From positions 192,001-256,000 of the forward strand of contig CAWDSK010000003.1 of assembly GCA_963804995.1 (NCBI GenBank): a stretch of DNA of 64,000 nt. Reading direction: 5' to 3'. The stretch is from an uncultured Acidobacteriota bacterium (GTDB lineage Bacteria; Acidobacteriota; Terriglobia; UBA7540). Made by a program: the position numbers and the translations under genes. Shown one piece after another: positions 10,373 to 41,100 of the stretch. How positions within the stretch are numbered: the first letter of the stretch is position 1; each line of letters opens with the position of its first letter. The notes beneath the pieces were generated by a model. That model saw nothing but the letters and a program-made list of their open reading frames with translations, made no database searches and was not told where the DNA came from.

Positions 10373-10549
10373 GGCTGGCGCAGACCCCGGCCCTTTGAGG
10401 TCTGCGATTTCCGAAGGACACGCGTGGGAAGTGACGGCTTACAGAAATTGTCCTCCAGAATGGCCTGCTGTTGGAGGAAGTGGCCGCACCAAAGCCTGGA
10501 ATCCCTTTGGGAGATCGCAGACGCTAAAGAGCAAGCGTCTGCGCCAGCC
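10373..10549. repeat. inverted hairpin doublet related to the 167-bp array unit
   Basis: ggctggcgcagacc...ggtctgcg and cgcagacgct...agcgtctgcgccagcc. Confidence 0.65.
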
Positions 10550-34326: not shown

Positions 34327-34403
34327 GCGCCTGTAGCTCAGATGGATAGAGCGTTTGCCTCCGGAGCAAAAGGTCGCAGGTTCGAATCCTGCCAGGCGTA
34401 CCA
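34327..34403 (+). tRNA. tRNA-Arg(CCG)
   Basis: GCGCCTG/CAGGCGT acceptor stem, anticodon arm TTTGC-CTCCGGA-GCAAA, GGTTCGAATCC, encoded CCA. Confidence 0.96.
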
Positions 34404-34626: not shown

Positions 34627-35649
34627 ATGAAAAATTGGACCCTGTCGCGGCGTCAATTTTTGCGCCGGGCTTCCGCGGGACTGGCCGTTGCTGGTTTTGC
34701 AGGAGGCGATTTTGTGGCATCAAAATACCCTGAGGAGGGCAAAGTAAGTGGGACCTCGCTCGCTATGCCCCGCTATGGCGCACAAGTGGGACAAGCTTAC
34801 GACCTCAAATCGCTGCGCATCTGGGACTGCCACACCCATTTAATTGGCTTCAAGGGTTCGACGCCAGCGGAGCGGATGGCGGACATGCTGCGTTTCGCCG
34901 ACCGTATGGATATTGAGCGGATGTGCGTGTTCCTGGGCATGAAGGAGGCCTTCCATGGTGGCCGGGAGGAGATGCGCCAGCAGAACGACGAGGTCCTGGA
35001 CGCCGTAAGCCACTCGGGTGGCCGCGCCCTGGGTTACGCCTTCATGGATCCCTTTTCCGATGTCCCCGCCTGCGTCGATGAAATCAACCGGTGTGTGCGC
35101 GACGGCCCCATGGTGGGTTTGAAGTTTGAGTATGACACGCTGCGCCATCCGGGTGAGCAGCCGGGCGCGCCGACCTACGGAACTCCTCGCGACCTGAGTT
35201 TTCTGGACCCGATTTTCAAGCGCGCCGGTGAGCTCGATGCCGTCATCCTGCATCACACCTGGATTAATTCGCTGGGACCCGAGGACCCCGCCGAATCCAC
35301 GCCCATGGAGATCGCCGCGATCGCCCGCCGCCATCCCACCGTGACCGTCATCTGCGGCCACACGGGAGGCAATTGGGAGCTGGGGATTCGCGCCATCCGC
35401 GGGGTGAAGAACGTTTACGCTGATCTCTGCGGGTCCGATCCCGTGGCGGGCTACACGGAGATGGCGGTGCGCGAATTAGGCGCGGAGCGCGTGATGTACG
35501 GCAGCGACGTGGGTGGGCGCAGCTTTGCGTCGCAGCTTGCGAAGGTGATGGGTGCGGATATTCCCGAATCGGCGCGGCGCCTGGTTCTGGGCGGAAATTT
35601 GCGCCGCGTGCTGCAACCCATTCTTACGGCAAAGGGGTTGAAGGTGTGA
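34627..35649 (+). CDS. Tat-exported amidohydrolase_2 family protein
   Basis: SRRQFL, DCHTH, GHTGG, MYGSD. Confidence 0.85.
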   Translation: MKNWTLSRRQFLRRASAGLAVAGFAGGDFVASKYPEEGKVSGTSLAMPRYGAQVGQAYDLKSLRIWDCHTHLIGFKGSTPAERMADMLRFADRMDIERMCVFLGMKEAFHGGREEMRQQNDEVLDAVSHSGGRALGYAFMDPFSDVPACVDEINRCVRDGPMVGLKFEYDTLRHPGEQPGAPTYGTPRDLSFLDPIFKRAGELDAVILHHTWINSLGPEDPAESTPMEIAAIARRHPTVTVICGHTGGNWELGIRAIRGVKNVYADLCGSDPVAGYTEMAVRELGAERVMYGSDVGGRSFASQLAKVMGADIPESARRLVLGGNLRRVLQPILTAKGLKV

Positions 35650-35691
35650 GGAGGGTGGCCGCGGCGCAAAGCCGCGGCGCGGGCATGTTGC

Positions 35692-35838
35692 GTAGCGCGG
35701 TCCCCCGCATTTGGGATCCGCGGTTCTTCGTTTTGGAAGAACCTCAAAGGTCGAACAAAGACGGCTTCTTCGCCATGATACATTCGCTCAATTGGCGCAG
35801 GAAGAGCCGCAGACCTCAACGGCGGAGGTCTGCGCTAC
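35692..35838. repeat. solo copy of the GTAG REP doublet that forms the 167-bp array
   Basis: GTAGCGCGGTCCC...CCGCAGACCTCAACGGCGGAGGTCTGCGCTAC. Confidence 0.85.
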
Positions 35839-35876
35839 ACGGGCTGTTCATCGACATAATGCTGAGGAAGCAAAAC

Positions 35877-38270
35877 ATGGTTGGCCACAAGCGGTCCGGC
35901 GGATGGCGCGTGGCATTCCCAGCGCCGACCTTGGGCCCAGCGATAGTCTTTAGCATTGGGGCACTCGTCTTCAGCGCGGCAGTGTTGCTTGGACAGAACC
36001 CCTGCGCCAATACGGCCGAGGGCCAGGCGTTATTCGGCAAAAACTGTGCGGGTTGCCATGGGGCTGACGCTTTGGGAAGTGACCGCGGACCGGCGCTCGC
36101 CGGCAATCGCGACTTGAGCGACCGGTCCCTGCGGAGTTTGCACGAGTTGATCAAGCTGGGGATTCCGGGGACGGGCATGCCGGCGTTCGATCTGCCCGAC
36201 AAAGATCTGGAGGCGCTTGCCGAATTCGTGCATTCACTCAATTGGCAGGCGGCGGGAACGAGCGTGCCGGGCGACCCTGCGGCCGGAGAGAAATATTTTT
36301 TCGGTAACGGGAAATGCAGTTCCTGCCACATGGTATCGAGCCGAGGGTCGGCCGTCGGTCCCAACCTCTCGAACCTCGGAAACGAAAAGACCCTCGAGGA
36401 GATTCGCGCGGCGCTTCTCAGCCCAATGCGCATGTGACTCCCGGCTACCAGTTGGTCACTGTCATCCTGCGCGATGGGAAAACCGTGCGCGGCTTTGCGC
36501 GCAACCGCACCAATTACGATATTCGTGTCGAAGACCTTCAGGGGAAATTCCATCTGATCGAAGAGGGCCAGTTTGTTTCGGTCCGCGCGGAGAAAGCCTC
36601 GGCCATGCCCGCGGTACAGGCTCGCCCGCAGGAGTTGCAGGATCTGATTGCCTACCTCAGCCACCTGACAGGTGTTGAGCCGGGCGCGCTGGCGGTCGCA
36701 TCTGCATTCTGCCCCCGGCGACATTGACTTTGAGCGGATTCTGCATCCCCGCCCCGGCGACTGGGCTACTTACAACGGGACCCTGAACGCGAACCGTTAC
36801 AGCGACCTCGCCCAAATCAACACCACCAACGTCAACCAGTTAAAATTGCGCTGGGTCTTCACGGTCCCCCTGTGGAAGAACCTTGTCCCTGACTCGCCGT
36901 ACTACGAGCAGAATTACGAAACCTTTGGGCTGGAGACGACGCCGCTGGTGGCCGACGGCATCATGTACATCACCGGTCCCGGGTCGGTCTTCGCGCTCGA
37001 TGCCCTGTCGGGGCGCTTGATCTGGCAGTACTCACGCCATCGCACTCCCAGCGTGGTGGGAGACGCGTCCCTCGGCACGAATCGCGGCGCGGCCATCCTG
37101 GGGGACAAGGTATTTTTTGTAACCGACAACGCACACCTGATCGCGCTCAACCGCACCACCGGAAAACTGGTTTGGGAAGCGGTGATGCCGGAAGAGGCCC
37201 AGCACTACGGTGGCACCGTGGCCCCCTTGGTCGTCAAGGATATGGTGGTCGCGGGTGTGGCGGGAGGCGATTGGGGGATTCGCGGATTTGTGGCCGCGTT
37301 TAAGGCCGAAACGGGTGAACGGGTTTGGCGAACCTATACCATCCCCGCCAAGGGAGAGCCGGGAATTGAGACTTGGGGTCCCCAAGAACCCAAGTTGGGA
37401 GGCGGTGGCACCTGGCTGACCGGCTCCTATGACCCCGAAACCGATACGCTTTACTGGCCGACCGGCAATCCCTGGCCTGATTCGGACGACCGCGACCGCC
37501 CCGGCGACAACCTGTATACCGATTCCATCCTGGCGCTCGATCCCGCCACGGGAAAGATGAAGTGGTATTACCAGTTCACACCCCACGATGTGAAGGATCA
37601 GGACGCTAATCAGCCCCCGGTGCTGATCGATGCACACTATCAGGGGCAGGACCGCAAGCTAATGTTGTTTGGGGGCCGCAATGGATTCTTCTATGTGCTC
37701 GATCGAACAAACGGCAAAGTCCTGCTGGCGAAGCCTCTGGTGAAATGGCTGACTTGGGCGAGCGGAATTGGCGCGGATGGGCGGCCGCAACTTCTGAAGG
37801 AAGGCAACGTATCCTGCCCGGATATTGCCACCAACTGGAACGCTACGGCCTTCAGCCCCAAGACCCGCCTCTATTACGTGATGGTGCGGGAGAGGTGCGT
37901 GGTCAACCTCGCGTCATTGCGGCGCGGCGAGGAACCGCCGCACGTGGAGCCGGAAAAGAAGTACCTGCGCGCCCTTGATATCGAAACAGGAAGGATTGTT
38001 TGGGAAATGCCGCAGGCCGGTCCCGCCCGCGAGAAGAGAGAAGCGGGGGTGCTGGCGACCGCGGGGGGTCTGATTTTCTACGGAGACCCGCCGGGAGATT
38101 TTGTGGCCTTGGATGAACGAAACGGGAAACCCCTGTGGCACTTCCCTGCCGGCGCGGAAAATAAAACCTCGCCCATGACTTACACGGTGGGCAATAAACA
38201 GTTTGTGGCGATCGCTATCGGGCCCAATGTGCTTTGCTTTGCCTTGCCTTCGGGGACGGCCATGAAATGA
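35877..38270 (+). CDS. di-heme cytochrome c / PQQ-dependent dehydrogenase fusion, indels at ~36423 and ~36707
   Basis: CAGCH and CSSCH heme motifs, then PQQ propeller (ETTPLV, NRGAA, SYDPETDTLYW, DNLYTDS, SPMTY). Confidence 0.85.
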
Positions 38271-38286: not shown

Positions 38287-39097
38287 GGCCTGTTTCGTAG
38301 CGCGGTCCCCCGGTTTTGGGGTCCGCGGTTCTTCGTTTGCCTGACCCGCAAAACTCAAAGACCTCTTCGCCACGATACTTTCGCTCATATGACGCAGGAA
38401 GAACCGCAGACCTCAACGGCGGAGGTCTGCGCTACGCCGCTCGTGGCCCGGACGGCCTGTTTCGTAGCGCGGTCCCCCGGTTTTGGGGTCCGCGGCTCTT
38501 CGTTTGCCTGACCCGCAAAACTCAAAGACCTCTTCGCCACGATACTTTCGCTCATATGACGCAGGAAGAACCGCAGACCTCAACGGCGGAGGTCTGCGCT
38601 ACGCCGCTCGTGGCCCGGGCGGCCTGTTTCGTAGCGCGGTCCCCCGGTTTTGGGGTCCGCGGCTCTTCGTTTGCCTAACCTGCAAAACTCAAAGACCTCT
38701 TCGCCACGATACTTTCGCTCATATGACGCAGGAAGAACCGCAGACCTCAACGGCGGAGGTCTGCGCTACGCCGCTCGTGGCCCGGGCGGCCTGTTTCGTA
38801 GCGCGGTCCCCCGGTTTTGGGGTCCGCGGCTCTTCGTTTGCCTAACCTGCAAAACTCAAAGACCTCTTCGCCACGATACTTTCGCTCATATGACGCAGGA
38901 AGAACCGCAGACCTCAACGGCGGAGGTCTGCGCTACGCCGCTCGTGGCCCGGGCGGCCTGTTTCGTAGCGCGGTCCCCCGGTTTTGGGGTCCGCGGCTCT
39001 TCGTTTGCCTAACCTGCAAAACTCAAAGACCTCTTCGCCACGATACTTTCGCTCATATGACGCAGGAAGAACCGCAGACCTCAAAGGCGGAGGTCTG
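38287..39097. repeat. tandem array of five 167-bp REP-doublet units, fifth interrupted by the intron
   Basis: Units start at 38287, 38454, 38621, 38788, 38955; unit 5 resumes at 41011. Confidence 0.95.
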
Positions 39098-41010
39098 GTG
39101 CGCCGGGATAAACCGGCAGAAAGCAGAGAATGAAAATTTCTCACGAGGAAGGAGTAGCGATCCACTCGGCCCCGAGTTTTGCGCTGGGCGTCGTGAGGCG
39201 CACGGTGAAGCGTAAACAGGGGAATAGGTGGGCTGGGTATTGAGCTTCGGAAATGTCCAATCAGGACGCCGACGTTTTCAGACTAAACGGAAGGCAACAT
39301 GAGGCCGGGACGCCAACGCGAGTTCCGGCACAGTCCTGCGTAGTCGTAGACCCCAGACACGCCTAGACACTTTCTGCACGAGAACCGGGAGACCTCGGAG
39401 GCGCCGGCCGCCGTAGATCGTGGCCGGACGGCGGGAAAAGGCGATGGCCGTACAGCCCGCCTGCACGCTTTCGAGGAGTCGGACAGCGGAACAGTACCGA
39501 TGAATCATTTGAACAAAGACGGGAAGCCGTTGGCGGAGAATGAGGAGGGAAGGCCGCTGATCAAGGAGAACACCCGTTGGCCTAACACGCACCCGACACA
39601 GAGCGGGGCACGCGTGTCCCAGGGACTCGCGGGTGTGCGGAAAGCCGCGAAGGAACACAGGGAGATGAAGTTCACGGCCTTGCTCCACCACTTAACGGTC
39701 GATCTGCTGCGGGAAAGCTTTTACGCCTTGAAGCGAAAAGCTGCACCGGGAGTAGACGGCATGACGTGGCAGGAGTATGAAAGCGGGCTGGAAGGTCGAC
39801 TCGTCGATCTGCACAGCCGGGTCCACCGCGGAGCATTCCGAGCGAAGCCCTCGCGAAGGGCGTATATCCCGAAAGGCGACGGGCGGCAACGTCCGTTGGG
39901 GGTTGCGGCACTGGAGGACAAGATCGTCCAACAGGCCGTGGTCACCATCCTCAATGCGATTTACGAGGAAGACTTTCTGGGCTTCTCGTATGGCTTTCGA
40001 CCGGGATGCAGCCAGCATCAAGCGCTGGACGCGCTCTCGTACGCGCTCACGGTGAAGCACGTGAACTACGTTCTTGACGCGGACATTCGTGGATTTTTCG
40101 ATTCGATATCCCACGAATGGATGCTCAAGTTCGTGCAGCATCGCGTCGCCGACCCCCGGATTCTCCGGCTCATCCAGAAATGGCTGAAAGCCGGGGTGAT
40201 GGAGGAAGGCGAATGGTCGGAGACGGAGATGGGTACGCCACAAGGGGCGGTGGTCTCGCCCCTGCTGGCGAATATCTATCTGCACTACGTCTTTGACCTG
40301 TGGGTGCAGGCGTGGCGCAAGAAGCACGCCCGGGGAGACGTGGTCGTGGTGCGGTATGCCGACGATACGGTCCTTGGATTCCAATCGCAGACGGAAGCCG
40401 ACCGCTTTCTGGAGGATTTCCGGGAGCGGGTGGGGAAGTTTGGATTGGAACTGCATCCTGACAAAACGCGCCGGATCGAGTTCGGGCCGTTTGCCGAACT
40501 TTACCGGAAACGGAGAGGAGAAGGTAAGCCGGAGACGTTCGACTTTCTGGGCTTCACGCATATCAGCGGGAAGAACCGGAGGGGGCAATTTACCGTGAAG
40601 CGGAAGACGATCAGCAAGCGCCTGCGGGGGAAGTTGCAGGAACTCAAGCAACAACTCCGGCAGCGTCGGCACGATCCCATCGCGGATACGGGTAAATGGC
40701 TCCGGTCGGTCGTGCAAGGCTACTTCAACTATCACGCGGTACCGGGAAACCTCGACCGCCTGCGAATCTTTCGGGAACGGTTGACCCGACTGTGGCGAAC
40801 GCAACTGCGTCAACGCAGTCAACGCCACCGCCTCAACTGGGACCGACTGGGGAAGCTTGCGGCCTGCTGGTTGCCTGCTCCGCACGTTGTGCATCCTTGG
40901 CCATCCCAACGGTTCGCCGCCACACATCCGAGATAAGAGCCGTATGCGCTAACCAGCGCACGTACGGATCCGTGCGGGGGGTACCGGGTAACCGGTATCC
41001 CTACCGCAAC
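39098..41010 (+). mobile_element. group II intron, 1913 bp, apparently complete
   Basis: 5' GTGCGCC; domain V GAGCCGTATGCG...CGCACGTACGGATC at 40937-40970 with AGC triad; domain VI ending CGCAAC; removal restores GGAGGTCTG-CGCTACGCCG. Confidence 0.95.
39500..40936 (+). CDS. ltrA: group II intron reverse transcriptase/maturase, no endonuclease domain
   Basis: APGVDG, YIPK..GRQRPLG, SYGFRPG, DADIRGFFD, GTPQG..SPLLANIYL, YADD, FDFLGF, GYFNYH; no HNH tail. Confidence 0.95.
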   Translation: MNHLNKDGKPLAENEEGRPLIKENTRWPNTHPTQSGARVSQGLAGVRKAAKEHREMKFTALLHHLTVDLLRESFYALKRKAAPGVDGMTWQEYESGLEGRLVDLHSRVHRGAFRAKPSRRAYIPKGDGRQRPLGVAALEDKIVQQAVVTILNAIYEEDFLGFSYGFRPGCSQHQALDALSYALTVKHVNYVLDADIRGFFDSISHEWMLKFVQHRVADPRILRLIQKWLKAGVMEEGEWSETEMGTPQGAVVSPLLANIYLHYVFDLWVQAWRKKHARGDVVVVRYADDTVLGFQSQTEADRFLEDFRERVGKFGLELHPDKTRRIEFGPFAELYRKRRGEGKPETFDFLGFTHISGKNRRGQFTVKRKTISKRLRGKLQELKQQLRQRRHDPIADTGKWLRSVVQGYFNYHAVPGNLDRLRIFRERLTRLWRTQLRQRSQRHRLNWDRLGKLAACWLPAPHVVHPWPSQRFAATHPR

Positions 41011-41100
41011 CGCTACGCCGCGGGTGGCCCTGAAGGGGCGGAATAGGTGAATCCGTATAGCGCAGGGCAAGATGTGCGGGGTTTTGAAATGAGTTCTGGT

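Follow-up and report, generated by a model that had tools for sequence, protein, structure and literature searches.

Group II intron in a REP array

The stretch of DNA analysed here, hereafter the window, comprises 64,000 nucleotides (nt) of contig CAWDSK010000003.1 from an uncultured Acidobacteriota bacterium (assembly GCA_963804995.1). The named closest homologues point to a probable acidobacterial host. It contains a group II intron that interrupts a tandem array of repetitive extragenic palindromes (REPs), and this intron is one of 40 copies in the genome, which are concentrated in the same repeat family. The features of the locus are listed below in window coordinates; RT denotes reverse transcriptase and IBS an intron-binding site in the exons.

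35692..35838, plus strand: lone REP doublet of the same family as the array; empty junction after 35832
38287..39097, plus strand: tandem array of 167-bp REP doublets (4.9 units, 99% matches), downstream of a pyrroloquinoline quinone (PQQ)-dehydrogenase-like gene
38297..38327, plus strand: first REP of unit 1, GTAG plus an imperfect hairpin; not a target
38405..38435, plus strand: second REP of unit 1, a 10-bp stem with a 7-nt loop, then CTAC, the complement of GTAG; empty junction after 38429
39098..41010, plus strand: group II intron of class E type, 1913 nt, from GTGCGCC to CGCAAC
39133..39353, plus strand: domain I core (Rfam group-II-D1D4-6, RF02005, 171 bits)
39500..40936, plus strand: intron-encoded RT/maturase with a YADD motif, 478 aa (TIGR04416, 346 bits against a cut-off of 300)
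40937..40970, plus strand: domain V, 34 nt, AGC triad, non-GNRA loop
40972..41008, plus strand: domain VI, whose bulge includes A41003
41011..41016, plus strand: 3' exon CGCTAC, covering IBS3 (C), the two bases that end the stem and the GTAG complement

The intron carries the group II hallmarks: a GUGYG 5' end, an AY 3' end, domain I, domain V with its triad and domain VI, with the RT/maturase open reading frame (ORF) lying in domain IV. Domain V scored 39.2 bits against RF00029 (E 1e-6), just below the gathering score of 40, and A41003 is the likely branch point. RVT_1 was the only Pfam match in the 478-aa protein, the Pfam scan detecting no endonuclease domain. The insertion splits the fifth array unit between GGAGGTCTG and CGCTAC. 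The boundaries, the junction and the 34-nt domain V with an AGC triad had all been proposed from the window alone (the initial annotation), and comparison with the other genomic copies upheld both ends and the junction; domain V was likewise found as described. Each array unit consists of two GTAG-tagged REPs inverted relative to each other. The second REPs of units 2 to 4 are empty targets like that of unit 1 (junctions after 38596, 38763 and 38930), and with the lone doublet these account for all five empty junctions that had been predicted in the window. The first REP of unit 1 is not a target: its plus strand lacks IBS2 and the 3' tag, and at the IBS1 position its minus strand has two mismatches to the exon-binding site (EBS1) of the intron. 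No RNA run contained half of the sequence words, and four runs, compared at 85% likeness, yielded fragments of intron relatives only and no spliced junction of the intron described here.

Intron copies across the genome

The genome (7.55 Mb in 9 contigs, C1 to C9) holds 40 copies of the intron that are at least 99.4% identical, four of them at contig ends. Such a set of near-identical sequences suggests that the intron is mobile. The 38 full-length copies each lie 0 to 6 bases from the consensus and all retain an ORF of equal length to the stop, one of them with a 1-base insertion. Target sites were scored on a genome from which the introns had been removed, using the 36 copies with full flanks on both sides. 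All 36 sit at the same base of a REP 3' arm, 35 in GTAG- or CTGG-tagged hairpins and one in a degenerate REP. RGTCYG followed by C occurs 5167 times in the intron-removed genome, and 36 of these sites are occupied; 35 belong to the 733 sites in hairpins and the 36th is the degenerate REP. The specialisation on a REP family that had been proposed from a single locus is therefore borne out across the genome, with no fully flanked copy in an unrelated site. Positions -5, -4, -3, -1, +1 to +3 and +5 were invariant across 37 aligned site rows, and the flanks of the copies diverge right up to the junction.

Several arrangements of the copies were recorded in addition. Contig ends fall in or beside intron copies at the start of C2, the end of C6, the start of C7 and the end of C9, and tandem pairs occupy neighbouring REPs at C7:1-3886 and C6:2168574-2172663. 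The minus-strand copy at C3:1520741 lies between unlike flanks, a REP of GTAG type at the 5' side and an end of CTGG type at the 3' side, possibly through recombination between copies or through an assembly misjoin. Seven truncated relics of related class E introns were found (C6:842676, C2:652257, C5:460087, C1:441116, C1:206552, C9:36980 and C1:135675), of which five are 5' stubs and two are 3' stubs; the sites of the 5' stubs are not REPs but are similar to those targeted by relatives in other genomes. An ORF-less group II intron of another lineage, with a different domain V, lies on C3 at about 98.3-99.06 kb just behind a different short hairpin, and near-identical domain V/VI ends occur at C3:45.9 kb and C6:2113.8 kb.

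Pairing of the intron guides with the exons

Three guide elements of the intron and their partners in the 5' exon were assigned.

39085..39089, plus strand: IBS2 (-13 to -9), within the loop of the REP that the intron interrupts
39092..39097, plus strand: IBS1, GGTCTG, within the 3' arm of the stem
39254..39258, plus strand: EBS2, UGUCC, assigned by covariation in relatives
39279..39284, plus strand: EBS1, CAGACU, in the terminal loop of a matching stem-loop, with covariation
39346..39346, plus strand: EBS3, G, pairing with C at +1, with covariation in relatives

The Rfam RF02005 alignment, the minimum free energy fold and the centroid fold agreed in placing CAGACU in a terminal loop. EBS1 pairs with positions -6 to -1, and in relatives with 35 distinct loops this pairing reached 5.86 of 6 pairs, compared to a mean of 4.2 and a maximum of 4.7 after shuffling. 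EBS2 pairs with -13 to -9; in relatives 3.24 of 4 pairs formed in the better of two registers (21 types), compared to a shuffled mean of 2.05 and maximum of 2.6. EBS3 and the +1 base were Watson-Crick partners in 58 of 61 relatives, with four pair types. The covariation set retained 68 of 80 rows after removal of wrong 5' calls, duplicate sequences and short flanks (four rows each), and its relatives are not independent of one another; relatives starting GAGCG or GAAAGCG were read by eye and stand outside the counts. The folds, the alignment and the covariation thus confirm CAGACU as EBS1 in its loop, as the initial annotation had it; EBS2 and EBS3 had been overlooked there. Bases 1-5 of EBS1 are identical to the CAGAC of the 5' arm of the REP itself.

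Among relatives L034, L068, L009, L039, L170 and L014 some non-standard 5' ends (GAGCG, GAAAGCG, GTAAGCG) follow a well-paired IBS1. A-14 may form an additional pair, EBS2a, of the kind mentioned for IIB1 introns in the excerpt of PMC12584367 consulted.

Occupancy in relation to pairing and replication strand

Replication strands were called from the position of dnaA, a cross-validated 6-mer model and counts of words resembling FtsK-orienting polar sequences (KOPS); plain GC skew is weak in this genome, and C1 and C9, with five fully flanked copies, were excluded. Targets on the lagging-strand template were filled in 26 of 60 cases and those on the leading-strand template in 1 of 75 (Fisher p 3e-10), and after clustered sites had been merged the counts were 26 of 47 and 1 of 59. 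On C2 the orientation of the intron reverses across dnaA (124 kb), and copies share one strand on C3 (6/7), C5 (4/4) and C6 (15/15). The copy in the window is the sole leading-template copy among the 27 strand-assigned copies at RGTCTG sites; local skew gave no sign of an inversion around it, and the five empty targets near it belong to the disfavoured strand. A CTGG-type REP at window positions 10380-10404 is empty, its target strand belonging to the favoured template.

Occupancy also followed the match to EBS1. REPs carrying GGTCCG, which places an A-C mismatch in the pairing, were filled in 3 of 51 cases, compared to 26 of 60 for matched REPs (p 7e-6). On the opposite strand the REP presents IBS1, IBS3 and the hairpin, but lacks IBS2 and has a different 3' flank, which partly explains why only one REP strand is used (0 of 74 filled).

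The REP family, RAYT genes and possible recombination among copies

The genome contains 304 GTAG-tagged hairpins, 188 of them in inverted doublets, and 38 CTGG-tagged ones. The targets of the intron form two subfamilies of one palindrome, ending in CGCTA (complement of GTAG) or CGCCA (complement of CTGG). Fourteen Y1-transposase matches were found, two of them flanked by such REPs with an intron copy in the adjoining REP. The protein encoded at C6:722.5 kb is a REP-associated tyrosine transposase (RAYT; NF047646, 117 bits against a cut-off of 80) with CTGG REPs on both sides, and the Y1 gene at C5:58.5 kb has GTAG REPs on both sides. By these sequence features the repeat classifies as a RAYT-associated REP. 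The TnpA-REP enzymes examined in the consulted part of PMC8266576 require the tag motif for cleavage, and on the tag strand insertion of the intron parts GTAG from its hairpin; for these reasons intron-filled REPs are, by analogy, probably dead as RAYT substrates. The harmless and self-amplifying nature of the landing pad put forward in the initial annotation is an inference.

Could the copies have spread as DNA, through movement of an intron-containing REP by RAYT or through gene conversion, with no retrohoming at all? A RAYT is present, the two RAYT-like genes just described adjoin intron-filled REPs, and variants among the copies are homoplasic, with 27 of 36 site pairs incompatible (positions 58, 373, 732, 858, 910, 1103, 1381, 1658 and 1705). 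The homoplasy may reflect recombination or gene conversion, or polishing chimeras from mis-assigned reads in the assembly. However, flanks that diverge as far as the junction and come from two REP subfamilies are not what DNA spread would give, and neither are an occupancy that tracks EBS pairing and fork orientation or an ORF of constant length in all 38 full-length copies. We regard this origin as very improbable. A genealogy of the copies was given up, the shared variants being homoplasic.

A multi-copy element with GGTCTG/CGCCA, no hairpin and a poor IBS2 is present at about 10 sites (among them C1:511471 and C3:9261, in intron-removed coordinates), none of which is occupied. In the window, a cytochrome c gene upstream of the PQQ-dehydrogenase-like gene (35646-36727) appears split over at least two frames near 36430 and 36700, which may be an assembly error or mark a pseudogene, and a tRNA gene with anticodon CCG lies at 34327-34400.

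Class and relatives of the intron

The RT is 57% identical to that of a disrupted intron and 35% identical to that of an intact 419-aa one, both on Sinorhizobium meliloti plasmid pRmeGR4b. These two were identified as S.me.I4 and RmInt1 because, according to the part of PMC5894124 consulted, this plasmid carries a class E intron that is disrupted, S.me.I4, together with a single RmInt1 copy. In a 46-row RT tree the RT of the window and that of the disrupted intron fell in a clade with support of 100/99, apart from the class D pair RmInt1 and RmInt2; the tree holds a single class E reference, named by inference from that paper, lacks a class F reference, and has long branches meeting near its root. 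Judged by RT sequence, the intron groups with bacterial class E (IIE). It also shows class E traits, with EBS1 and EBS2 present and no endonuclease family found in the protein. The Rfam model puts a terminal loop bearing CGC at the place of alpha-prime in DId3, and class E introns have alpha-prime in the terminal stem-loop of DId3 according to the excerpt of PMC3753933 available; the same source gives a 5-nt domain V loop for the class, compared to the 4-nt loop (AACC) folded here. Class C (IIC) was ruled out on account of the covarying EBS2 and a 6-bp IBS1 inside the stem, and class D on account of 33-35% RT identity to RmInt1 and RmInt2 and the separate clade. Matches in the PDB (LtrA, GsI-IIC and others) showed roughly the same distance throughout and gave no guidance on the class. 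The EBS2, the 34-nt domain V and the position of the RT are in accord with the earlier statement that the element is not IIC-like.

Relatives show how far the specialisation extends. A sister intron in genome G005 (92-93% identity) has EBS1 CGGACU and a changed EBS2, and its six copies lie in REP-like sites with C at -2, five of them mismatching EBS1 at another position; the C-at-minus-2 variant of the REP is commoner in G005 (31 compared to 9 empty sites). In G026 an 88% relative shows 5' flanks of REP type at two of its sites, and one further site lacks a REP. Close relatives with the CAGAC core in EBS1 are also found at sites without the REP hairpin (L003, L174 and L178). Among relatives below 88% identity with a standard 5' end, a stem covers the site in 1 of 50. 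Stems that are shifted or bulged escape the automatic stem score: at the nine sites of the 88-93% relatives five pass, while eight are REP-like by eye on the 5' side. Exceptions recognised by eye are L068, L170 (a derivative without an ORF) and a 54% relative in G058 (L014, L027 and L051-L066). All 18 copies of this 54% relative are located at the 3' end of another palindromic repeat, whose 5' arm is matched by EBS1, and they form two orientation blocks with one exception. REP targeting is thus real in the genome studied, while the comparison with relatives makes it recent and the derived state of a small subclade. Within class E, REP targeting probably arose repeatedly. G026 and G005 also contain class E derivatives that lack an ORF and measure about 650 nt (L167, L169, L171, L170 and L182), including one direct tandem pair and one copy in a REP.

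Recognition of the target: linear sequence or hairpin

We favour, with moderate confidence, a recently expanded class E intron without endonuclease that homes by retrohoming of the RmInt1 type, reads its target as linear sequence and has its guides tuned to the REP. At the fork the ribonucleoprotein (RNP) would reverse-splice into single-stranded DNA, in nearly every case that of the lagging-strand template, with replication supplying the primer for retrohoming. EBS1, EBS2 and EBS3 would pair with -6 to -1, -13 to -9 and +1, and A-15, A-14, G+2, C+3 and A+5 are probably read by the protein. In the subclade these determinants would have become tuned to one strand of the host's RAYT-associated REPs, the REP loop containing IBS2 and the two A's, the 3' arm IBS1, and the tag complement positions +3 to +5, giving about 150 to 270 intergenic landing sites at presumably low cost to the host. 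Pairing calls for an open REP stem, which makes tolerance of the hairpin more likely than a need for it. Near-invariant positions at the occupied sites are A-15, A-14 and CGCNA, and A-14 and A-15 are enriched in non-REP relatives as well (36 and 29 of 46). This enrichment would fit reading by the protein, by analogy with RmInt1 and RmInt2 (PMC4615759, as excerpted).

Several observations weigh against this reading. Sites outside hairpins that match IBS1-3 on the lagging template were filled in 1 of 125 cases, so that EBS pairing alone is insufficient for site choice, and those followed by CGC were filled in 1 of 17 (p 0.003 relative to REPs). Only 5-7 non-hairpin sites carry the additional linear determinants, and one is filled; this comparison is underpowered (p 0.22 and 0.37), and the determinants were taken from the occupied REPs themselves, which makes it partly circular. 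Selection against other insertions is not separated from targeting. By simple folding, the 8-bp exon hairpin (-12.2 kcal/mol) is more stable than EBS1-IBS1 (-6.3) and EBS2-IBS2 (-2.4) together, and the linear model leaves unexplained how the intron would splice out past such a predicted hairpin in the precursor RNA. Finally, the replichore calls rest on a weak skew.

The near-disuse of these 125 sites is what would be expected if the hairpin itself assists homing. EBS2 would dock on the loop of the REP as a toehold, EBS1, a copy of the 5' arm, would displace that arm, and the protein would hold the foot of the hairpin and read the complement of the tag. Such invasion of a hairpin by a class E intron would differ from IIC recognition and would have evolved separately, on different palindromes, in the subclade and in G058, and each insertion would remove a RAYT substrate. 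In folding predictions IBS1 is paired (mean probability 0.997) and IBS2 unpaired (0.013) at 36 of 36 occupied sites, matching the geometry of a loop toehold exactly; both REP subfamilies are used (16/40 and 10/20 filled) despite their different loops and tags, and in G058 EBS1 matches, as read by eye, the arm of the palindrome. Against this, a stem in only 1 of 50 relatives implies a protein without a family-wide need for hairpins, and the sister intron L003, with the same EBS1 core, lies outside REPs. Stability of the hairpin did not predict occupancy: filled (n=26) and empty (n=28) good targets had medians of -11.7 and -11.6 kcal/mol (p 0.22), and the weakest occupied site had a 6-bp score and -7.2 kcal/mol. 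We consider homing assisted by the hairpin possible but rather unlikely, both as a mechanism and in its extended form as a twice-evolved mode of invasion. The parallel with IIC hairpin recognition that had been drawn earlier found no support, and the geometry differs, IBS1 lying inside the stem.

The same 125 sites bear on a further account, in which the intron inserts at many IBS1-3 matches and persists only in intergenic REPs. Long ORFs contain 78 of the 125, and REPs are mostly intergenic, 19 of the 304 GTAG-tagged hairpins falling within long ORFs. Yet among the 47 matches outside long ORFs 46 are empty too, and the filled one is the degenerate REP. Copies so close to their consensus have had little time for purging, and selection on location alone would not be expected to make +2, +3 and +5 invariant. 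Survival of this kind seems quite improbable as the source of the pattern.

Retrohoming with linear target reading thus remains the reading that we prefer, and under it the machinery is familiar; the landing site and its place inside a hairpin stem are unusual. Across this genome a class E intron has specialised, through its guides, on RAYT-associated REPs, and such REPs thereby join the kinds of site that group II introns are known to target in nature. With 40 insertions and more than 100 empty alternatives, the genome is a natural data set in which the targeting rules of class E (three EBS, distal A's and fork bias) can be read. The puzzle lies in IBS1: it is buried in a GC-rich stem of 8-10 bp in the target DNA and the precursor RNA, and still the intron fills about 43% of the well-oriented sites. 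Its solution would reveal how RNPs without endonuclease handle structured single-stranded DNA, and would also yield a tool for multi-site integration in REP-rich bacteria.

Comparison with known systems

The statements that follow refer to excerpts of the papers cited. In a literature search to which most subscription papers were out of reach, no report of group II intron homing into REPs was found. The natural group II targets named in a review from 2015 are homing sites, terminators and attC sites (PMC4424553). REPs serve as dedicated multi-copy targets, with 100% association, for ISPpu9, ISPpu10, ISPa11 and ISPsy8, but these are DNA transposons; the sole group II intron in the same table was associated with REPs in 2 of 9 copies (PMC1525189). 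The repeats themselves resemble the GTAG-family REPs of RAYT/TnpA-REP systems in having the tetranucleotide at the foot of the palindrome, hundreds of intergenic copies, inverted doublets, arrays and a flanked RAYT (PMC3733652, PMC8266576). The second subfamily here bears a CTGG tag, a string absent from the main text of PMC3733652 in the form consulted.

Class C introns share with the intron described here the lack of an endonuclease, intergenic DNA hairpins as targets and many copies (PMC4424553, PMC7923331). They differ in having an IBS1 of 3-4 bp, no EBS2 and a stem-loop upstream of IBS1, whereas here the stem itself contains a 6-bp IBS1 and there is an EBS2 that covaries with the loop. 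IIB introns are found beside attC sites, and the authors state that no role of the upstream structure has been reported for them (PMC7923331).

The known class E introns S.me.I4 (S. meliloti GR4) and Cl.be.I2 resemble the present one in lacking an endonuclease and in possessing EBS1-EBS3. In the sources seen, neither a REP target nor mobility in vivo is reported for members of the class, in contrast to the 40 copies in one repeat family here (PMC5894124, PMC3753933). A parallel in behaviour is offered by RmInt1 and RmInt2 of class D (IIB3), which are likewise free of endonuclease and biased to the lagging template, with a minor leading route (PMC5894124, PMC4615759, PMC8914252). RmInt1 has a major and a minor homing route relative to the fork (PMC8914252, PMC5894124), and the bias of 26/60 compared to 1/75 matches these two routes. 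RmInt2 also uses a multi-copy repeat, the inverted repeats of ISRm17, and both introns show relaxed EBS2 pairing with distal positions read by the protein. Their targets, however, are insertion sequences, with 7-10 copies in strain GR4, and the accounts consulted describe no hairpin over IBS1 such as the REP targets of the present intron have.

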